Of a DNA stretch of 64,000 nt, positions 2,530 through 47,374 are shown in pieces. How positions within the stretch are numbered: position 1 is the stretch's first letter; every line of letters starts with the position of its first letter. Source of the stretch: an uncultured Planctomycetia bacterium (GTDB lineage: Bacteria > Planctomycetota > MHYJ01 > WSZJ01); the NCBI GenBank assembly GCA_964590435.1, contig CAZPWT010000045.1, positions 31,027-95,026 on the forward strand, in the 5' to 3' direction. Made by a program: the position numbers and the translations under genes. The notes below the pieces were generated by a model, which worked only from the letters and a program-made list of their open reading frames with translations, had not been told where the DNA came from and did no database searches.

Positions 2530-2561
2530 AAAACGGGGAGGCCGGCGAACCGGCCTCCCCG
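2530..2561 (-). terminator. Probable intrinsic terminator after the selenoprotein gene
   Basis: Perfect 12-bp stem CGGGGAGGCCGG-UUCG-CCGGCCUCCCCG followed by UUUU on the minus strand; U-tract is short. Confidence 0.6.
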
Positions 2562-2579: not shown

Positions 2580-3584
2580 CTACTTCTTGTCCCCGCCGCC
2601 CTTCAGCTTGTCCAGCGTCGCGTGGTGCTCGTCGAAGAACTTCTTCGCGTTCGGGTTGTCGCCGAACTTGTCCTCCATCACCTTCAGCGCCGCCTCGTAC
2701 TTCGCCGCGTCGTTCCCTTCCTCGGCCGCTTCCATGATGAAGATGTAGAACGGCTGGAAGTAGTCGCTTTCCTCGCCCGGCTCGTGGCCGGCCTTCTGCA
2801 TGTCGAGGAACTTCTTCCCCGCCGCCGCCTGGGCCTTCTTGATCTTCGCCTTGTCGTCCGGGCCCAGCCCGTTCACGTCCTTCCCGAACTGCATCATCAC
2901 GTCCTTCATCTCCAGGTCGACGATCAGCCCGGAGAGCTTCGTCTTCTCGTCGTCCGTCAGGTCCTTCATTTTCTCGAGCGCCGCCTTCGCGTCGGCCGCC
3001 TTCAGGTTGCCGAGCTCGGCATCCTTGAAGAGCACTTCCTTGGCCGCCGCCGCGTCGCCGCCGGCTGCCTTGGCGCGGAGGTCTGCGTAGGACTGGGCGG
3101 TCCCGAGCGTTTCGCCGAAGCCCTCGGCGGAGCGCTGGCCCTCGTGCTTGGCGAGGACGTTGCCGTCCGAGTCCATCACGATCAGGTAGGGGAAGCCGCC
3201 GCCGCCCTTTTCACCGAGCAGCTCCTGGTCGGCGTCGCCGTCGACGTGCGAGGTCACGTTCAGGTACAGCACGACTTTCCCCGCAAAATCACCGAACTCG
3301 TCCTTGGAGAGCGTACCGCTCTCGAGCGATTTGCAGGGGGGTCAGGGCGAATACGAGCGGGAGAAGTACGCGAAGATCAGCTTCTTGTCCTTCTTGGCCT
3401 GCTCCTTCGCCTTGGCGTAGTCGGTCACCCAGGGGAACTTGCTGACCCACGGTTCGGCAAGCTTGTCGGCGCGCTGCTTCTTGAGCTGGTCCTGCGACGG
3501 CGGGCCCGCGAGGGCGATCGTCGGCGCGAGGAAGAGCGCAAGCGCGGCGAGAGGAAGGCATCTCACGCTCACGGTCGTCTCCAT
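2580..3584 (-). CDS. Exported thioredoxin-fold selenoprotein (UPPC motif) with helical C-terminal domain; start uncertain (ATG 3584 or GTG 3566)
   Basis: ORFs 3342..3653 and 2580..3272 are in frame and separated only by TGA at 3342-3344; read-through gives FAYFSRSYSP-U-PPCKSLESGTLSKDEFGDFAGKVVLYLNVTSHVDG...GFPYL (Trx fold with cis-Pro motif); signal peptide present. Confidence 0.88.
3307..3323 (-). promoter_or_regulatory. Bacterial SECIS-like hairpin
   Basis: GAGAGC-GGUAC-GCUCUC; apical loop starts with G, 24 nt 3' of the UGA. Confidence 0.75.
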
Positions 3585-3683
3585 CGTTGGGGAGGGTTCC
3601 GGCGAAGGCGGGAGCGTCGGGGCTCCCTGGCGGCCTGCATCGGAAGGTGCCACTGTAAACGCAAGACACGCATCGGATAATCC

Positions 3684-4733
3684 CTAAATGCTCCTCCCGA
3701 TGCACCGCGCGATCGCGGAGACTTCCTTCATGAGGACGTCGAACTGGTCGGGGTGAAGGGACTGCGCGCCGTCGCACTTGGCGACCTCGGGGCGCGGGTG
3801 AACCTCGATGATGAGCCCGTCGGCGCCGGCGGCGATCGCCGCCTTGGCGAGCGGGCCGACGAGGTCGCGGTCCCCGGCCGCGTGCGAGGGATCGCAGACG
3901 ATCGGCAGGTGCGAGAGTTTCTTCACGACCGGCACGGCGCTGACGTCGTAGGTGTTGCGCGTGTACTTCTCGAACGTCCGGATGCCGCGCTCGCAGAGGA
4001 TGACGTTGTAGTTGCCCTTGGAGAGGATGTACTCGGCGGACAGCAGCAGTTCCTCGAGCGTCGACATCATCCCGCGCTTGAGGAGCACCGGCTTGCCGGC
4101 CTTGCCGACTTCCTCGAGCAGGTTGAAGTTCTGCATGTTGCGCGCGCCGATCTGCAGGATGTCGGCGTACTCCATCACGGCCGGGATGTCCTGGACCGAC
4201 AGCACTTCCGTCACGACCGCCATGTCGTTCTCGTCGGCCGCCTCGCGCAGGATCTCGAGCCCCGGCTTTCCAAGCCCCTGGAACGCGTACGGGCTCGTCC
4301 GCGGCTTGAACGCCCCGCCGCGCAGGATCGTCGCGCCGGCCGCCTTCACCCGCTTCGCCGCCTCCCGCACCTGCGCCCGGTCCTCGACCGCGCACGGCCC
4401 GGCCATCACCGTCACCTGCCGCCCGCCGATCCGCCGCCCGCGGACCTCGACGACCGTGTCCTCCTGCTTGAACTCGCGCGACGCCAGCTTGTACGGCTTC
4501 AGGATCGGGATCACCCGCTCCACGCCCGACAGCGACTCGAACGCCGCCGAGTCCACCTTGCGGTCGCTTCCGATGATCCCGATCACCGTCCGTTCCTCGC
4601 CGCTCGAGATGTGCGGCTTGAACCCCAACGACTCGATCTGCTGCAGCACGGCGCCCGTCTCGCGGGCGCTGGCGCTCGACTTCATCACGACGATCATGGC
4701 GGTATCGCTTTCGGACTTCGGGGGAGGGCTCAT
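3684..4733 (-). CDS. aroF: DAHP synthase type I-beta with N-terminal regulatory (ACT-like) domain; alternative start ATG 4697
   Basis: AGPCAVE, RGGAFKPRTSPYAFQGLG, IGARNMQNF, LKRG, ERGIRTFE, DPSHAAG motifs. Confidence 0.95.
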   Translation of the reverse strand: MSPPPKSESDTAMIVVMKSSASARETGAVLQQIESLGFKPHISSGEERTVIGIIGSDRKVDSAAFESLSGVERVIPILKPYKLASREFKQEDTVVEVRGRRIGGRQVTVMAGPCAVEDRAQVREAAKRVKAAGATILRGGAFKPRTSPYAFQGLGKPGLEILREAADENDMAVVTEVLSVQDIPAVMEYADILQIGARNMQNFNLLEEVGKAGKPVLLKRGMMSTLEELLLSAEYILSKGNYNVILCERGIRTFEKYTRNTYDVSAVPVVKKLSHLPIVCDPSHAAGDRDLVGPLAKAAIAAGADGLIIEVHPRPEVAKCDGAQSLHPDQFDVLMKEVSAIARCIGRSI

Positions 4734-26640: not shown

Positions 26641-29600
26641 CTATGTCGCAACCGCCCCCTTCAGCGCTCCCAGCATCGCCGCCATCCGCCCGGCATCCGG
26701 CAACGCATACGGCCGGAACTTCTCCACCGTCCCTTCCTCCTCCACGAACAGCAGCCCGCGGTACAGCCCCAGCTTCGCCGCCGCCGGCGTGTCGATCAGC
26801 TCCGACGAATCCGACCCGCTCATCTGGAACAGGATCCGCATCCCGAATTCGCGCAGCGTCTTCTGCGAGAACGTGCGCTTCAGGTTTCCCAGCGAGTCGC
26901 ACCACGTCGCCGTGAACACCCCGCGCGCCGGCCCCTCCGTCAGCACGTTCACCAGGCACTTGTCCGTCGACGGCTTGTCCCCTTCCCCGCCCCCGAGGTC
27001 AAACTCGTCGCTCTGGCGGAGCTTTCTGAAGCGCTGGAGGTCGTGGATGAAGAGGTAGACGGGGAGCGAGCCGGAGCCGCCGCTTTCGTCGCGCGACTTG
27101 ACGAGGGCGTCGAGGTCCTCCATGAGCTGGGGGATCTTCGCGTAGTCGACGATTTCGACTTCGTGGGGAAGTGCGGCAGCGAGGTCCGTGAGGCGACGGG
27201 CCTCTGCGACCTCTGGGGGCGTGCCGTCGACGAGGATGAAGCGTGCGGATTTCGGCGCGTGGAAGGAGGCGAGGCTGAGGAGGATGGACTGGACGACGGC
27301 GGTGGCGGACTCGCGCTGCTGCCCGACGACGAGGAGATTGGCGCCGGCCTGGCGCTGGAAGCGGACCTCGGTGGGGCCCTTGATGGCGTTGGCCTCGCCG
27401 ACCCAGGCGCGGGGGACGCCGTCGCCGGACCAGGGTTTCGCGAGCGACTTGCGGAGGAGGACGTTCTGGCCGATGTCGGCGGGAAGGTTGCCCTCGAACA
27501 CCGTGGTCGCTTCGCGCGGCTCCCAGCCTTCCTGGTCGGCGTGGGCGCGGAGCCGGGCGAGGTACTTGTCCTCGATGGCGTCGGACATCCAGACGACCTG
27601 GAACGGGGAGTTCCCCTCGATCATGCCGGACATGTCGTTGTAGATCGCCTCGCCGGGGCGCGACAGGAGGCGAGCGGCGGGGTTGTCGTCGCCGAGGATG
27701 AGGAGCGAGTCGGCCTCGTTGCACTGGAGGGCGATGCGGATCCCCATCTGGCCGAGGGTCGTCTTGGCGAGCGTGTACGAGCCGCCGAGCGTCTGCGAAC
27801 CGAGGATCACGTGCACCCCGAACGCGCGGCCCTGGCGGACGATGCGGTCGAGGAGCAGCGCGGCCTCCTGCGCCGTCGCGTCCTCCTCGGTGAAGAACTC
27901 CTGGAATTCGTCGATGAGCAGCAGCGTGCGCGGCAGGTAGTCGCCCTTCCCGTGCTTGCGGTAGCCGGCGAAGTCCTGCACGCCCGCGGCGCGGTAGAGG
28001 TCGGCGCGCTCGCCGAGCTCGCGGTCGATGCGGCGCAGGACGGACAGGCCGAATTCGCGGTCCGACTCGATCGCGATGACGCGGGCGTGGGGGAGCCGGT
28101 GGTTGGCGAAGCGCTTGAACTCGACGCCCTTCTTGAAGTCGATGAGGTACAGCTCGAGTTCGCGGGGGCCGTACCAGAGGGCGGAGTTGGTGATCATGAC
28201 GTGGAACAGCGTGGACTTACCGGAGCCGGTCTTGCCGGCGATGAGCGCGTGCTGCGACGTGCCGCGGCCGAGCTCGAGGCACTGGAGCTTGTCGGCGCCG
28301 GAGCGGCCGAGCGGGATATGGACGCCGGTTTCGGAGCTGAGGCTCGCCCATTTGCCCTCGGGGGGCGCGACGGTCTCGAACGGGACCTCGACGCGCCCTG
28401 CGCCGGCGCACTGCCGGCCGATGGACTGGAGAAGGGGCGTGAGGACGGCCGGGTCCGCGGGAGGCTCGGGGACGGCCACGGCGCGCGGGAGGATTTCCTC
28501 GTCGACCGTGACGGCGTCGTTGGCGATGGAGAGCACGAGTCCGTTGGTGCGGAAGCGCGGCGGCGTGAACGCCGGGGGGACCTTCTGGCCGCGTTCGCCG
28601 AAGATGAGCGTGTGGACGCCGCAGCGGGCGCCGCTGGCCACGATCCCCGCGAGCCGGTCCATCGCGACGTCGCTGAACCCGCGCGGGAAGTCGGCGATCG
28701 TGAGGAAGTGGTACGCCTCGGCCATGATGCCGACCTCGCGGTTGTAGTCCCCGATGGTCGCGTAGCGGTTGCGCAGGTACTTCTGGATGATCTTCTCGAT
28801 GTGCTCGGTCAATTCCGCGAGCTTCTTCTCGATGTGGACGGTCTCGGTCCAGATGCGGCCGCCGACGATCGACTCGTCGTCGTCCGCGAGGTGCATGAGG
28901 GCGGAGAAGCTCTGGCCGAGCCCGACGGGGTCGACGAACAGGAACTTGGCCTTCGCGGGCGGGAACGCAGCGAGGATCCGGAGCACGGCGTCCGAGACCG
29001 TCTGCGCGGCGCGGGGGCGGTTTTTCGCGTCGGCGCTCACGAGGAGGTTCCCGCGCCCGGGGAACGCCAATGAGAGCGGCACGGCGATCCGCCCATTGTC
29101 CGGCAGTGAGAACGGCTCGCCGCTTCCCCGCGCACCGGCCAGCGGCCCGAAATCCACCATCGCGTCGCCGAGGTAGGCCGCCTCGGGGAATTCTTTCGTC
29201 ATGCGGTAGTCGTGCCACGACGGGTCCGTCCACGGCGGGATCTGCCGGCGCCCCTGCGCCCTCGCCGCGGCCATGGACGAGGTGAAGTCGCCGACCTCAC
29301 GGGTCCAGGCGGCCGCGAGCTTCTCCCGGGCCTCGGCCCCCCTGGCCAGCGCCTCCTGCCCGCCCTGCGCCTGCGCCGCGCGGTGGACCTCGAGTTCCTT
29401 CCGGAAGCGTTCCTCGAGCGCGCGGGCCTCGGCGTCGAGGCGGGCGTCGAGGGCGGACTCGCGCTGGTTGTTCCGGCGGCGGACGCGTTCCAGCAGCGCG
29501 AGGTGCTTCTTCTTCAGCGACTCGATCCGCGGCGCCGCGGCTTTCTTCGCCTCCTCGAGCCCCGTGGCCAGCGTCTCGTCCAGGTCCGCGACCGCGCCGA

Positions 29601-30549
29601 TCTTGTCCTCGAGCCCCTTCTCGCGCCCCGCCGCGATCCGCCGGCCGACCTCCTCCTCCTGGCGCAGGAGCCCGGCGGTCATTTCGTCGGCGCGGCCCCG
29701 CAGGGCGTTCACGAACTCGCGCGCCTTGGCCCGCAGGGCGACCATCACCGCGAGCCCGATCGCCAGCGCGCCGGCGAACACCAGCGGCACGACGACGATC
29801 GCGCGCTCCTCGAGCTCGGGGCGCGCGAAGTGGATCGCCGCGAACGCGCCGCCGTGCAGCGCGGCGAGCAGGAAGAACACCGCCGGGTACGAGAACGCCT
29901 TCACCATCAGCAGCCACAGCGCGCGGCTGCGGTACTGGAGGAACCGCGTGTCCTCGAGCAGCCCCTGCCGGACTTCGGCGGCGATTTTCTCGGGCGGGAC
30001 GTCCTGGAAATGCCCCGCTCCGACGATCCCTTCCTCGGGATTGACCCGCACATCGCGCGCAAAGGACTCGACCTTCGCGCGCCACTCCTCGGACTCCCGG
30101 CGCACGGCGACGATCCCGGCGAGCAGGCCGTCCAGTTGCCGCGTCAGCCGGGCCTGCGCGTCGTGCATCGCGTGCAGCGATTTGTCCCGGGCCGCCGCCT
30201 GCTCCTTCTTCAGCCGCGCGATCGTGCCGCCCAGGCGGTCGTGCTCCCGCTTCGTCGCCGACTCCAGCGCCCGGTCCACCTGCACCAGCCGCCGCGCCGA
30301 GCGGTCCTCCCCTTTCCGCCGCGCTTCCGCGTGCCGCGCCTTCGTCTCCTTCCGCAGCCCGTCGAGCTCGGCGTTCAGCCGCGCCGTCGCCTTCGCGAAC
30401 GTGTCGTCCACCTCGCGCTTCCGCGCGTTCGCCCCCCGGTCCGACTCGTCGCGCGCCTCCACCGTCTCCTTCAGCCGCTTCTCGAACTCCGCGACGCGCG
30501 CCCGGACCGCCTCCATCCCGAATGCCCCCGTTCCCTCGCTCAACTGCAT
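26641..30549 (-). CDS. FtsK/SpoIIIE-domain ATPase, EssC/EccC-like (start reassigned to ATG 30549, SD GAGGAAGGA)
   Basis: Coiled-coil N-terminus, two TMs, intact GKTGSGKST and LLLIDEFQ module, GRAFGVHVILGSQ, RIALQC, RPGEAIYN; degenerate flanking ATPase folds. Confidence 0.9.
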   Translation of the reverse strand: MQLSEGTGAFGMEAVRARVAEFEKRLKETVEARDESDRGANARKREVDDTFAKATARLNAELDGLRKETKARHAEARRKGEDRSARRLVQVDRALESATKREHDRLGGTIARLKKEQAAARDKSLHAMHDAQARLTRQLDGLLAGIVAVRRESEEWRAKVESFARDVRVNPEEGIVGAGHFQDVPPEKIAAEVRQGLLEDTRFLQYRSRALWLLMVKAFSYPAVFFLLAALHGGAFAAIHFARPELEERAIVVVPLVFAGALAIGLAVMVALRAKAREFVNALRGRADEMTAGLLRQEEEVGRRIAAGREKGLEDKIGAVADLDETLATGLEEAKKAAAPRIESLKKKHLALLERVRRRNNQRESALDARLDAEARALEERFRKELEVHRAAQAQGGQEALARGAEAREKLAAAWTREVGDFTSSMAAARAQGRRQIPPWTDPSWHDYRMTKEFPEAAYLGDAMVDFGPLAGARGSGEPFSLPDNGRIAVPLSLAFPGRGNLLVSADAKNRPRAAQTVSDAVLRILAAFPPAKAKFLFVDPVGLGQSFSALMHLADDDESIVGGRIWTETVHIEKKLAELTEHIEKIIQKYLRNRYATIGDYNREVGIMAEAYHFLTIADFPRGFSDVAMDRLAGIVASGARCGVHTLIFGERGQKVPPAFTPPRFRTNGLVLSIANDAVTVDEEILPRAVAVPEPPADPAVLTPLLQSIGRQCAGAGRVEVPFETVAPPEGKWASLSSETGVHIPLGRSGADKLQCLELGRGTSQHALIAGKTGSGKSTLFHVMITNSALWYGPRELELYLIDFKKGVEFKRFANHRLPHARVIAIESDREFGLSVLRRIDRELGERADLYRAAGVQDFAGYRKHGKGDYLPRTLLLIDEFQEFFTEEDATAQEAALLLDRIVRQGRAFGVHVILGSQTLGGSYTLAKTTLGQMGIRIALQCNEADSLLILGDDNPAARLLSRPGEAIYNDMSGMIEGNSPFQVVWMSDAIEDKYLARLRAHADQEGWEPREATTVFEGNLPADIGQNVLLRKSLAKPWSGDGVPRAWVGEANAIKGPTEVRFQRQAGANLLVVGQQRESATAVVQSILLSLASFHAPKSARFILVDGTPPEVAEARRLTDLAAALPHEVEIVDYAKIPQLMEDLDALVKSRDESGGSGSLPVYLFIHDLQRFRKLRQSDEFDLGGGEGDKPSTDKCLVNVLTEGPARGVFTATWCDSLGNLKRTFSQKTLREFGMRILFQMSGSDSSELIDTPAAAKLGLYRGLLFVEEEGTVEKFRPYALPDAGRMAAMLGALKGAVAT

Positions 30550-30752
30550 TCCTTCCTCGCCCGGCGCAGGATTTCCTCGATGCGCTGGATCGCCGATGTG
30601 ACCGATTTCATCGCGGGCAGGAGACATTCCAGGTGGTCCCTCTCGAAGTCCGCCCGCGCCGAGTCGTTCCACACGATCTGCGTCTGGTCCCAGTGCGCCT
30701 GCAGGTCCTTCAGCGCCTTCGCCATGATCGCGTCGTTGCCGCCGCCTTCCAT
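30540..30752 (-). CDS. Small WXG100-like helical protein, 70 aa
   Basis: MEGGGNDAIMAKALKDLQAHWDQTQIVWNDSARADFERDHLECLL...; TGATG overlap with the upstream gene; central WND turn; seen only as the tail of a longer tracked ORF. Confidence 0.75.
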   Translation of the reverse strand: MEGGGNDAIMAKALKDLQAHWDQTQIVWNDSARADFERDHLECLLPAMKSVTSAIQRIEEILRRARKECS

Positions 30753-31252
30753 CAGACTTCCCCCGGCTTGTGGGTCCCCAGGTACTCCTCCAGCTTCTCC
30801 ACCATCAGGTCCAGCCGCGCCAGCGCCTTCGGCGTCAGCGCGTCCATCATCACCGAAAACGACTTCAGCGACGCCAGCGACTTCTCCACCTCCGCCGTGA
30901 ACAGCACCGCCCAGCGCCGCGTCGCCTCCAGCTTCGCCTCCGTCTCCTCCTTGCGGCGCTTCTCCCGGTCCAGCACCTTCTTCGCGTCGATCGTCGCCTG
31001 CGAAGCCTTCCCCGCCGCCGTGAACTTCACACGGTTGTACTCGTTCTGCGCCAGGTTCACCGCGTTCTCGCACTTCCGCAGCTCCTGCTTCAACTGCGTC
31101 TGCCGCTCCCCCTTGAGCCACTCCGACGTCCGCTTGATCGCCGCGTCCACCCCCATCAGCGTGTTCCGGCAGGTGTCGTCGAAGGCGACGAAGCGCCCCC
31201 GGAAGTGCCGGATGATGTCCGGCGAGTCGATGCGGGCGGATCCCTGGGACAT
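30752..31252 (-). CDS. Coiled-coil hypothetical protein of the WXG100/FtsK module
   Basis: 166 aa, helical heptads, closely spaced with both neighbours. Confidence 0.8.
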   Translation of the reverse strand: MSQGSARIDSPDIIRHFRGRFVAFDDTCRNTLMGVDAAIKRTSEWLKGERQTQLKQELRKCENAVNLAQNEYNRVKFTAAGKASQATIDAKKVLDREKRRKEETEAKLEATRRWAVLFTAEVEKSLASLKSFSVMMDALTPKALARLDLMVEKLEEYLGTHKPGEV

Positions 31253-31258
31253 GGTCGG

Positions 31259-31531
31259 CTACCGCTGGTCCAGGTACTCCTTGATGCGCTCCGCCTTGCG
31301 CATCAGGAACGGGACGTGCTTGTCGGCGGCGTCCGCGAACTTCGCCAGCATCTTGATCATCTGCTCGAACAGCTCCGCAAACTTCGCCTGCTCCTGGTCC
31401 TGCCAGGTCTCGGCGAGCTTTATGAAGCGGTGGTGCATGGAGGAGATTTCGCCCTTGAGGTCGTTGTTGAACCGCTTGAGGTCGGCGGCGAAGCGGCGGA
31501 GTTCCTCGGGATCGACGACGGCTCTGGCCAT
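31259..31531 (-). CDS. WXG100-family (type VII secretion target-like) protein
   Basis: 90 aa; VDPEELRRFA N-terminus, central TWQD, helix-turn-helix pattern. Confidence 0.85.
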   Translation of the reverse strand: MARAVVDPEELRRFAADLKRFNNDLKGEISSMHHRFIKLAETWQDQEQAKFAELFEQMIKMLAKFADAADKHVPFLMRKAERIKEYLDQR

Positions 31532-31585
31532 GGTCGCGGGGCTCCATCGGGTGGGAAAACCGCCGCCGCGGGGTTGCGGCGACGA

Positions 31586-31614
31586 CGTCTATGCTGACTC
31601 CGGCGCTGGGTCAA
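31586..31614 (-). promoter_or_regulatory. Putative promoter of the WXG100/FtsK module
   Basis: TTGACC-17 nt-TAGACG, with GGAG SD before ATG 31531. Confidence 0.5.
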
Positions 31615-45708: not shown

Positions 45709-45760
45709 TCCCGGTCCTGATAATCCTGAGTCGCGCCACAAACTATAACGGAGAAACGGA

Positions 45761-46519
45761 ATGCGAAAGATTGCCTTGGGGATGTGCTCGCTGGCGCTGG
45801 CCGGCTGCGGCCTGATCGGCGGCGGCGGCGGTTCGACGTCCGGCGGCGGCGGGAGCAGCCAGCCCGACCCGACGGTGTACGATTCGATGAGCACGGGCTG
45901 GGACGTGGCGGCCCTCAAGGAAGGCGAATGGGTCGAGACCGAGACCAAGGGGTCCGGGTACTCCATGAAGTCCAAGCTGGCTTGCGTCGGGACCAAGGAC
46001 GGCCTGGTCTGGATCGAGCAGACGAACAGCTCGCAGGCCGGCTGGGTGACCCTTCTCGGCGTAGACAAGGCCGACCGGAAGACCAAGAAGGCGTTCTGGG
46101 GCAAGGCCGGCGAGGAAGCCAAGGAAATCAAGGTCCAGGCGATGCCCACGGGCGGCGGCGGCGCGGCGGGCGAGATGCCGAAGTCCAAGGGCACGATCAA
46201 GTACTCGAATGAGACCCTGACCGTCGCCGGCAAGTCGGTCGAGTGCCAGAAGATGGAGTCCGACATCACCACCACCTACCAGGGCAAGGACAACCGCTCG
46301 CAGTCCACCTCCTGGATGTCCGACAAGGTTCCCTTCCGCAGCTGGTACGACGAGAAGGCGGCCGATGCCTACAAGAACAACTCGGACATCAAGGTCGAGG
46401 GCAAGTACACCCTGAAGGGCGCCAATATGGTCAAGATGACGGCGCAGGGGACGACGATGGAAATCGTCGGGATGGGGACCGATGCCAAGATGACCGTGAA
46501 ACTGCCCGCACCGAAATAA
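45761..46519 (+). CDS. Lipoprotein of an unnamed beta-rich family, paralog A
   Basis: Lipobox LAGC; GEWVE, ACVG, KAFWGK, E.LTVAG..VECQK, WMSDKVPF motifs. Confidence 0.85.
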   Translation: MRKIALGMCSLALAGCGLIGGGGGSTSGGGGSSQPDPTVYDSMSTGWDVAALKEGEWVETETKGSGYSMKSKLACVGTKDGLVWIEQTNSSQAGWVTLLGVDKADRKTKKAFWGKAGEEAKEIKVQAMPTGGGGAAGEMPKSKGTIKYSNETLTVAGKSVECQKMESDITTTYQGKDNRSQSTSWMSDKVPFRSWYDEKAADAYKNNSDIKVEGKYTLKGANMVKMTAQGTTMEIVGMGTDAKMTVKLPAPK

Positions 46520-46600
46520 GAACCTTCTCTGGGGGAGCCAACGGGGATGATCCCCGAGGGCTTCTTCGCCTCAGGGGGAACATTTACAGGAGTTAAGTCG

Positions 46601-47374
46601 ATGAGCAAGCTGACGGTGATCTGCAGCGCGCTGGTCCTGGCCCTCTGCGCCACGCAGGCGCAGGCCCAGATGCCCGACCCGGTGATCCAGGAAGGGATGT
46701 ATTCGTACTACGACCTGTCCGGCCTGAAGGGCGGCGAGTGGGTCGAGTACGAGACGGTGAGCGAGATGGTGATGCAGGGCGTTCCGCCGAATCCGCAGAA
46801 GTCGAGCTCGAAGATCGCGTGCGTCGGCGTCGAGGGCGACACGGTCTATCTCGAGTCGGACCAGATGCTCTCGTACAACCCCGCCTGGAAGGGCATGGTG
46901 ATCATGTGCGCCGTGGACAAGAAGTCCGGCAACGTGACCAAGGCGTGGTGGGGCAAGGTCGGCGAGGCCGGCAAGGAGCTGAAGGTCGAGAAGGCGACGG
47001 GCGCGAAGCCGACGGAAGCGCCGAAGTTCGACGGCTCGGGCACGGCGAAGGTGTCGAAGGAGTCGATCAAGGTCGCCGGCACGGACTACGACTGCGAGAA
47101 GATCGAGATGGACATCACGACGAAGGCGAACGGCATGGAGTCGAAGATGAAGACGACTTCGTGGAGCAGCGAGAAGGTCGCCTTCAAGTACAAGGCGCAG
47201 GCTGCTGACGCGAAGGATCCGTACGACGGCAAGGTCAAGTGGGAAGGCAAGGCCGAAGGCAAGGGTGGCCTCGTCAAGTCCACGAGCGACATGGCCGGCA
47301 CGGGTTACACGATGAAGACGACGATGGAAATCAAGGCGAGCGGCACCGACGCCAAGATGAGCCTGAAGAAGTAA
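46601..47374 (+). CDS. Secreted protein, paralog B
   Basis: SD AGGAG, signal peptide ending AQA; GEWVEY, ACVGVEG, KAWWGK, CEKIE, WSSEKVAF motifs. Confidence 0.85.
   Translation: MSKLTVICSALVLALCATQAQAQMPDPVIQEGMYSYYDLSGLKGGEWVEYETVSEMVMQGVPPNPQKSSSKIACVGVEGDTVYLESDQMLSYNPAWKGMVIMCAVDKKSGNVTKAWWGKVGEAGKELKVEKATGAKPTEAPKFDGSGTAKVSKESIKVAGTDYDCEKIEMDITTKANGMESKMKTTSWSSEKVAFKYKAQAADAKDPYDGKVKWEGKAEGKGGLVKSTSDMAGTGYTMKTTMEIKASGTDAKMSLKK

Follow-up and report, generated by a model that had tools for sequence, protein, structure and literature searches.

Introduction

The commonest predicted selenoproteins of bacteria are thioredoxin (Trx)-fold proteins with selenocysteine (Sec, U) in a UxxC motif, and the decoding of UGA as Sec through a selenocysteine insertion sequence (SECIS) and SelB is an established bacterial mechanism, with fdhF of Escherichia coli as the prototype of the bacterial SECIS (bSECIS). 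The catalogued UxxC selenoproteins, described as Trx-like or thiol:disulfide interchange proteins, combine a Trx fold, Sec at the N-terminal position of the motif, homologues with cysteine (Cys) at that position, and a bSECIS immediately downstream of the UGA. These traits appear to recur in a minus-strand gene at positions 3584..2580 of a 64,000-nucleotide stretch of DNA from an uncultured Planctomycetia bacterium (contig CAZPWT010000045.1; the whole stretch is hereafter called the window). As one gene, it very probably encodes a 334-amino-acid (aa) precursor of an exported Trx-fold selenoprotein, which would act as a periplasmic thiol-disulfide oxidoreductase. An earlier note on this DNA had proposed a secreted Sec oxidoreductase in which UxxC replaces CxxC, and this proposal is supported, as far as sequence comparison can tell, by a Sec/Cys pair, a bSECIS-type hairpin and a Thioredoxin_7 fold.

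The locus resembles several described systems and differs from each in some respects. Compared with the catalogued UxxC selenoproteins, the protein described here possesses an extra eight-helix domain of ~175 aa, and Sec forms dominate its family (85:2 among homologous loci; ~86% of the best 150 protein clusters), unlike the Trx-like 2 group of the Global Ocean Sampling survey, for which 22 Sec forms stand against 2,098 Cys forms. DsbH of Chlamydia (PDB ID: 2ju5) is likewise of the Thioredoxin_7 type and is exported, as predicted for our protein, and the cysteines of its CMWC motif align with U81 and C84 of our protein, but DsbH is a single domain of ~150 aa without Sec and without the helical domain. 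CnoX/YbbN (PDB ID: 3qdn) shares the arrangement of a Trx fold at the N-terminus and, behind it, an all-helical repeat resembling tetratricopeptide repeats (TPR); it differs in being cytoplasmic and devoid of Sec, and the structural match to it has a low template modelling (TM) score. Finally, NCBI has modelled two Thioredoxin_7-type selenoprotein families, NF041199 (Trx7/PDZ) and NF041383 (VPGUxxT type 2), whose motifs are CxxU and VPGUxxT, respectively, instead of the UxxC observed here, where a PDZ domain is also absent.

One reading frame across an internal TGA codon

Translation of the minus strand gave a single frame of 334 codons interrupted by only one internal TGA (Table 1). Two mechanically listed open reading frames (ORFs) fall into this frame, separated by the TGA and 69 stop-free nt (3341-3273), just as the earlier note had described them. 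The read-through translation runs ...FAYFSRSYSP*PPCKSLESG...GGGGFPYL..., so that the product after the signal segment can be written as ...KKLIFAYFSRSYSP-U-PPCKSLESGTLS...EKGGGGFPYLIVMD... When the TGA is written as Cys, a Thioredoxin_7 match extends across residues 52-138, and this places the TGA exactly at the first Cys of a CxxC motif (SYSP-U-PPC).

Among all TGA triplets of the window on both strands, this one is unique in having 180 stop-free nt and a G+C content at third codon positions (GC3) above 0.85 on each side. TGA also serves as the ordinary stop codon of many window genes, and therefore the genetic code is not reassigned in this DNA.

The prediction that standard annotation would split the gene into two hypothetical genes came true in every public record seen. 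Gene callers emitted the N-terminal fragment as an 80-aa gene at two loci (L088 and L002), while the database records P0001-P0020 are mostly C-terminal fragments of 214-256 aa. Database proteins of the family in general mostly measure 210-250 aa and start just past the Sec position. All public family members carry the name 'hypothetical protein'.

Conservation of the TGA and the Sec/Cys pair

The aligned codon was compared over 87 homologous loci with 29-88% identity to the protein encoded here; 80 of them were obtained from a metagenome scan using peptide patterns that excluded the Sec position, and a genome scan with the single protein matched one locus in a metagenome-assembled genome (MAG). 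The codon is TGA at 85 of the 87 loci, TGT at one (L024) and TGC at another (L080). A Planctomycetia MAG with 88% protein identity (L001) shows SYSP-TGA-PPC and a Planctomycetota contig with 52% identity shows SYSP-TGA-GPC, while the sequences TGA-PPC and TGA-RPC were found at ~50% (L005) and ~33% (L007) identity, respectively. Over the homologous loci, the family motif can be formulated as YF(S/T)RSY(S/A)x-U-(P/G)PC.

Three contigs from different Sequence Read Archive runs (L088, L089 and L090) match the window at 100% identity over 1.7-4.1 kb, and the identical gene including its TGA is present in L088 and L089. In comparison with L001, the uncorrected ratio of nonsynonymous to synonymous differences per site (pN/pS) amounts to 0.18 for codons 1-80, 0.38 for codons 82-104, which are the 23 codons between the TGA and GTG 3272, and 0.24 for codons 105-334. 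These values indicate purifying selection on all three segments.

Searching 1.84 billion cluster representatives with a profile retrieved 1,045 matches at E ≤ 1e-3, 455 of them at E ≤ 1e-30. Among the best 150 of these 1,045 clusters, 21 are full-length and ~86% begin at or after the Sec position, as expected of truncated calls. We assembled 22 full-length sequences (20 of the 21 just mentioned, P0010 and P0016), and CxxC occupies the aligned site in 16 of them; in the other six, the site reads CGPS in one, and S, Y, H, F or A replaces the first Cys in five. DNA of the Cys form was available for five further genes besides L024 and L080, giving seven Cys forms in total. The homologues thus carry U or C at this site, a point on which the earlier note had made its proposal depend, and the coexistence of Sec and Cys forms is the signature by which selenoprotein families are defined (PMC13188914).

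If the TGA were a true stop instead, the locus would encode two separate products, a secreted peptide of 80 aa and a cytoplasmic protein of 230 aa beginning at GTG 3272, or else it would represent a pseudogene or a sequencing error. This explanation agrees with the annotation as two genes in every public record seen, and with the fact that no Sec machinery was found in the window. However, a stop at this position would cut one Thioredoxin_7 domain into two, whereas the Cys homologues are contiguous proteins. Furthermore, the 69 nt from the TGA to the GTG are free of stops and conserved as coding sequence (pN/pS of 0.38), the TGA is kept at 85 of 87 loci down to ~30% identity, and three independent assemblies are identical across it. 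We consider a true stop extremely improbable. The earlier note had itself raised the possibility that the TGA is due to faulty assembly or to a recent nonsense mutation; the TGA was upheld in this respect, given the three identical assemblies, its conservation to ~30% identity and a pN/pS below 0.4 on both sides. Judged on the sequences, the Sec/Cys pair, the conservation and the assemblies together exclude that the gene is a pseudogene and that the TGA arose by recent nonsense mutation or in assembly.

Two further observations concern the composition of the family. One 128-kb contig (Ga0247727_10000252) carries two Sec-form paralogues, L041 and L044, ~73 kb apart, which means that some genomes possess more than one copy. 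In addition, P0027, P0028, P0049, P0071, P0087 and the gene at L079:2818-3900 have replaced Sec/Cys by S, Y, H, F or A within an RSD-x-D-type motif. These members, often 485-509 aa long through duplication of the C-terminal helical module, sometimes stand in tandem with a Sec form; they are possibly redox-inactive derivatives that retain the helical function.

A bSECIS-type hairpin downstream of the TGA

The published constraints on a bSECIS comprise a stem of 4-16 bp, a loop of 3-9 nt, a G in the first two loop positions, a spacing of 16-37 nt from the UGA and a minimum free energy (MFE) of at most -7.5 kcal/mol (PMC13188914). The hairpin of the window agrees with all of them, having a 7-bp stem, a GUA loop, a spacing of 25 nt and an MFE of -13.2 kcal/mol, the last value being calculated for a 33-nt region whose synonymous recodings reach only -8.0 kcal/mol. 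The hairpin spans 18-34 nt downstream of the UGA, whereby the stem starts at 18 nt and the loop at 25 nt. The hairpin with a G-led loop noticed earlier is therefore confirmed, while the distance of 24 nt given for it describes the position of the loop and is incorrect for the stem.

To place this element in its family, a gapless alignment (A3) of 78 distinct Sec-form sequences, namely window 3282-3344 and its homologues, was analysed. In 75 of the 78, a perfect stem, 6 bp or longer, encloses a loop of 3-9 nt that starts 23-26 nt past the UGA. Pairing takes place in two registers within the same codons, GAG-NNN-GGY-NNN-CUC: 40 sequences, among them that of the window, use i+j=60, and 33 use i+j=58. 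Compensatory changes, in which both sides of a pair differ, were detected in five of nine pairs per register (23 and 26 cells, respectively). Because the subsets were picked by their best register, the percentage of paired cells is biased, but the compensatory changes are unbiased. The covariation score was reached by none of 500 shuffles, and partners slid along the alignment scored far lower. As a structural detail, one invariant U serves both registers by pairing as A23-U35 or A25-U35. In three loci (L035, L036 and L083), the hairpin is displaced ~10 nt further downstream.

Two controls, one by synonymous recoding and one by codon choice, separate selection on the RNA from selection on the protein, and the choice of codons in this region proved non-neutral. 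In a control in which each gene was synonymously recoded with its own codon usage, the Sec forms have a mean folding energy of -13.7 kcal/mol compared with -9.4 kcal/mol for the recoded sequences, and 80 of 81 lie below their own recoded mean (mean z of -1.7). The Leu codon in the 3' stem is never CTG (0/70), while CTG accounts for 38% of the Leu codons in the rest of these genes. In the loop, Gly is encoded by GGT in 30 of 59 cases (51%) versus 9% elsewhere in the genes, a roughly six-fold enrichment, which results in the G-G/U loop start of the published bSECIS model. The third position of the same Leu codon is G in five of the seven Cys forms and in zero Sec forms. The Cys forms fold at about -11 kcal/mol (z about -0.8) and are thus less stable than the Sec forms; with n=7 and a high G+C content, this folding contrast is only suggestive, and the codon-level contrast is the clearer signal of the two. 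Taken together, the SECIS postulated in the earlier note conforms to the published constraints and, beyond these, displays covariation and non-neutral codon choice.

Compared with the consensus bSECIS of the bSECISearch model, the element is likewise a stem-loop within the coding sequence just 3' of the UGA, with a small apical loop opening with G and then G/U, and with spacing and MFE within the limits. It deviates from this model in its two alternative registers and in the shift of a few members by ~10 nt downstream, and the bulged U or extended lower stem is not evident in the hairpin of this family.

These data also bear on the idea that the UGA is read through as an amino acid other than Sec, either by near-cognate decoding as Trp, Cys or Arg or after a lineage-specific reassignment, and that the hairpin merely slows termination. 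The codon after the UGA begins with C or G (UGA-C or UGA-G), and UGA-C is a leaky context in E. coli; moreover, no sel genes were found in the 64-kb window or in the 6 kb beyond it, which would suit such a read-through. Against it, many genes of the window use TGA as an ordinary stop, and a coding signal on both sides was found for only one in-frame TGA. The site corresponds to the catalytic Cys of CxxC, and Cys codons are the only alternatives at the homologous loci. Lastly, the loop prefers GGU, as the bSECIS model predicts. Read-through without Sec is therefore very unlikely in our view.

Fold and domain organisation of the predicted protein

A hydrophobic, signal-peptide-like N-terminus is present in 68 of 69 distinct complete homologues, and these N-termini support the signal peptide predicted for the protein of the window. 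The equivalent residues 1-28 in the AlphaFold2 model of P0016, a full-length Cys homologue, have a predicted local distance difference test (pLDDT) score below 50.

The following domain matches Pfam PF13899 with E=1.2e-7, scoring 32.2 bits with U treated as C and 27.3 bits with U treated as X, where the cut-off is 27. Five of six family members tested match PF13899 (best E=1.6e-10), so that the Trx-like fold suggested by the earlier note is borne out by scores above the cut-off. In the full-length alignment A2, R76, S77 and Y78 are conserved, and C84, K126, G127, G128, F131 and P132 are invariant. The broader alignment A1 retains K126, G127, G128 and P132 as invariant residues and F131 at a conservation of at least 90%. 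C84 is the presumed resolving Cys, and P132, which we take to be the cis-proline of the Trx fold, lies in a loop opposite the active site.

The AlphaFold2 model of P0016 (pLDDT of 86.5 and predicted TM score, pTM, of 0.80) consists of a disordered signal peptide, a Trx fold and eight helices, in this order. The Trx part has the strand and helix order of Trx-like proteins, and the helix formed by residues 87-93 begins just past the motif. Both features expected of a Trx oxidoreductase, a CxxC-type motif at the start of helix 1 and a conserved proline loop, were thus found. A phmmer search of the PDB returned DsbH (2ju5) as the best match (E=3.3e-4, residues 50-147), and a Foldseek search with the P0016 model returned AGR2/AGR3, DsbH, DsbD-gamma and ERp18 for its Trx part.

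For the C-terminal 175 residues of the window protein itself, AlphaFold2 predicts eight helices with high confidence (pLDDT of 95.1 and pTM of 0.87), in agreement with the helical C-terminal domain proposed earlier. No Pfam family matches this domain, and a Foldseek search of the PDB with the domain alone yielded no significant match (best E=0.56, with a weak resemblance to TPR, pentatricopeptide repeat (PPR) and alphaRep proteins). An assignment as TPR has neither Pfam nor Foldseek support, and we use only the term TPR-like helical repeat. The helical module is duplicated in some homologues.

Proposed mechanism and function

In the proposed mechanism, UGA 3344-3342 would be read as Sec during translation, with the hairpin acting as a bacterial SECIS that recruits SelB-GTP-Sec-tRNA(Sec) to the ribosome. 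After cleavage of the signal peptide, a mature protein of ~308 aa would be located outside the cytoplasm. There, the selenolate of U81 may attack substrate disulfides or other oxidised sulfur species, C84 would resolve the mixed selenenylsulfide, and P132 would act as the cis-proline. The C-terminal helical domain most likely holds the substrate or a partner. The motif of thioredoxin is CGPC, and that of DsbA is CPHC. A reducing or isomerising direction is favoured, at roughly even odds, because U(P/G)PC mirrors the thioredoxin CGPC and because DsbH, the nearest solved relative, is a reductase.

The protein may also be a true selenoprotein with a different role, for instance a DsbA-like oxidase, a selenol peroxidase or a CnoX-like 'chaperedoxin' that acts as a holdase via its helical domain. 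This view draws on the top whole-chain Foldseek match of the P0016 model, the Trx+TPR protein 3qdn of the Salmonella YbbN/CnoX type (E=5.5e-4), on further exported Trx7+TPR proteins encoded nearby in the genome, and on the homologues without Sec/Cys (S, Y, H, F or A), which keep or duplicate the helical module and thereby suggest that this module has a function of its own. However, the match to 3qdn, with a TM score of 0.23-0.26 and a root-mean-square deviation of 21 Å, denotes a similar architecture and no demonstrated homology, and the helical domain alone has no significant match in the PDB. In addition, U(P/G)PC resembles the CGPC of thioredoxin more than the CPHC of DsbA. Such a different role is unlikely on balance, though it deserves to be kept in mind.

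Several points weigh against the assignment as an exported Sec oxidoreductase or leave parts of it less secure. What the helical domain does and in which direction the redox reaction runs are both deduced by analogy. A conserved operon partner, such as an electron donor of the DsbD/CcdA type, was not found in the family loci. The genes selA, selB and selD and a tRNA-Sec were not found in the 64-kb window, in the 6 kb beyond its start or in the homologous loci examined; for the window, ~30 large ORFs were compared with Pfam, ARAGORN detected no tRNA and Rfam gave no match. As regards the hairpin, its complementarity is partly forced by the conserved L-E-x-G-x-L sequence (GAG...CUN), and the Cys forms still fold moderately. 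Rfam families likewise gave no match near the TGA, even at E ≤ 10, which is unsurprising for an element so short and variable.

Relationship to described families

The selenoprotein is, judging from profile scores, a distant relative of DsbH and not a DsbH equivalog, since it scored 24.7-29.3 bits with the NCBIfam model NF043050, for which the cut-off is 190. The two NCBI selenoprotein models of the Thioredoxin_7 type also remained far below their cut-offs, with 15.6 bits versus 300 for NF041199 (E=0.0057) and 12.8 bits versus 275 for NF041383 (E=0.068), and the TsoB model NF045694 gave 11.8 bits versus 805. The protein thus belongs to neither of these two families, and its score stayed below the cut-off of every NCBIfam model. 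In contrast to the catalogued thiol:disulfide interchange selenoproteins (PF13098/cd02953), for which the protein here scored 22.0 bits against a cut-off of 27, it passes the cut-off of PF13899. Membership of CnoX/YbbN was rejected, as no TPR family of Pfam was matched and the Foldseek match is at the level of architecture only.

The 2026 selenoprotein catalogue holds no entry for a PF13899 UxxC family, and a literature search on the motif and on selenoproteins of Planctomycetota brought up nothing specific. It is plausible that the family is undescribed, with the reservation that a broad label, 'Trx-like / thiol:disulfide interchange UxxC selenoprotein', is already in use. That it constitutes an uncatalogued selenoprotein family in its own right is a tentative proposal, which we place slightly short of an even chance; the comparison with the thiol:disulfide interchange family covered its description and Pfam score. 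Under this proposal, the family would comprise no fewer than 1,000 clusters (50% identity), most of them from Planctomycetota-like organisms of soil, sediment and sea. Its members would be exported Sec-thioredoxins (RSY-x-x-U-x-P-C) permanently fused to an undescribed eight-helix module, and Sec forms would exceed Cys forms by roughly 6:1 to 40:1. What sets the family apart is the fusion to a helical module, a Sec:Cys ratio that is very high and a SECIS with two registers; otherwise, the protein would work like the known UxxC kinds.

Genomic neighbourhood

The gene is situated between a gene for 3-deoxy-D-arabino-heptulosonate 7-phosphate (DAHP) synthase (3684-4733) and genes for a tautomerase, tyrA and aroC, within a long aro/trp cluster. 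The location inside the aro cluster given in the earlier note is thus correct, whereas a functional meaning of this location does not hold. Only the seven closest loci, with at least ~50% identity, retain this gene order; it is absent in L007 and the more distant loci, where the flanks available for the metagenome loci L009-L087 are at most 3 kb long. We therefore regard it as a lineage-specific order that offers no functional clue, and rejected a functional link to the synthesis of aromatic amino acids. An all-vs-all clustering of the flanking ORFs found only an antisense shadow ORF, tandem paralogues and lineage-specific genes.

Just past the stop codon lies a terminator-like hairpin (Table 1), which suggests that transcription does not simply run on from the selenoprotein gene into the aro genes downstream. 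It is a single match, where ~1.6 are expected by chance in the region, and its function as a terminator is putative.

Table 1. Features of the selenoprotein locus, given in window coordinates
Feature	Position	Strand	Basis and remarks
Predicted complete selenoprotein gene	2580..3584	-	ATG 3584-3582, Sec-TGA 3344-3342, TAG stop 2582-2580
Predicted Sec codon UGA, residue 81	3342..3344	-	TGA/Cys-codon conservation in homologues
Predicted redox motif U-P-P-C, residues 81-84	3333..3344	-	Alignment
Mechanical ORF 1	3342..3653	-	103 aa from GTG; N-terminal fragment; 80 aa from ATG 3584
Mechanical ORF 2	2580..3272	-	230 aa from GTG 3272; C-terminal fragment
Predicted signal peptide, residues 1-26, METTVSVRCLPLAALALFLAPTIALA	3507..3584	-	AxA-type site, predicted cleavage ALA then GP(P); read from the sequence
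Thioredoxin_7 (Trx-fold) domain, residues 52-138	3171..3431	-	Pfam PF13899
K-G-G-x-G-F-P loop, residues 126-132, containing P132, the presumed cis-proline	3189..3209	-	Alignment
Predicted eight-helix repeat domain, residues 160-334	2583..3107	-	AlphaFold2 of the window's own fragment
SECIS-like hairpin GAGAGCG-GUA-CGCUCUC (alternatively GAGAGC-GGUAC-GCUCUC)	3307..3323	-	7-bp stem; fold and covariation
Intrinsic-terminator-like hairpin	2534..2561	-	12 bp, UUCG loop, U-rich tail; 19 nt past the stop, before the tautomerase start

Some other genes in and around the window were recorded in passing. About 6 kb beyond the window start, L088 (6319-7308, minus strand) encodes an exported Thioredoxin_7/DsbH-like protein of 329 aa with TPR and a Cys-type CKWC motif; this paralogue by architecture shares 26% identity with the selenoprotein's Trx part, and U81 of the selenoprotein aligns with the first Cys of the paralogue. 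Similar Trx7+TPR genes occur at the same place in L002, L003 and L006. Within the window, the minus strand at 26644-31588 contains a set of genes resembling type VII secretion in a Planctomycetota-type genome. It comprises an FtsK/SpoIIIE ATPase of 1,387 aa (26644-30804; two matched stretches, E=1.1e-26), an ORF of 168 aa without an assigned family (30755-31258) and a WXG100 protein (31262-31588; E=9.5e-10). On the plus strand, no Pfam family was matched by two adjacent ORFs in the same frame at 45749-47371 (256 and 284 aa), whose G+C content at first codon positions (0.51) is unusually low for the genome; they may be foreign or fast-evolving.

Implications

The finding leaves the known mechanism of Sec decoding unchanged. 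Since every public record seen is split or truncated, the catalytic half of this family is missing in the databases, and with at least 1,000 clusters affected, the use of selenium in Planctomycetota-type genomes may be under-counted. The two-register SECIS within conserved codons is a tidy model of how RNA and protein constraints share one sequence. If the family is indeed uncatalogued, it would represent a selenium-dependent periplasmic 'chaperedoxin'-like system whose SECIS, placed in the codons of L-E-x-G-x-L, flips between registers. Its unusually high Sec:Cys ratio makes the family well suited to the question of why Sec persists and has not given way to Cys. Envelope redox biology would gain from this gene an exported thiol-disulfide enzyme that depends on selenium and carries an unexplored helical partner domain, in organisms whose periplasm has received little study.

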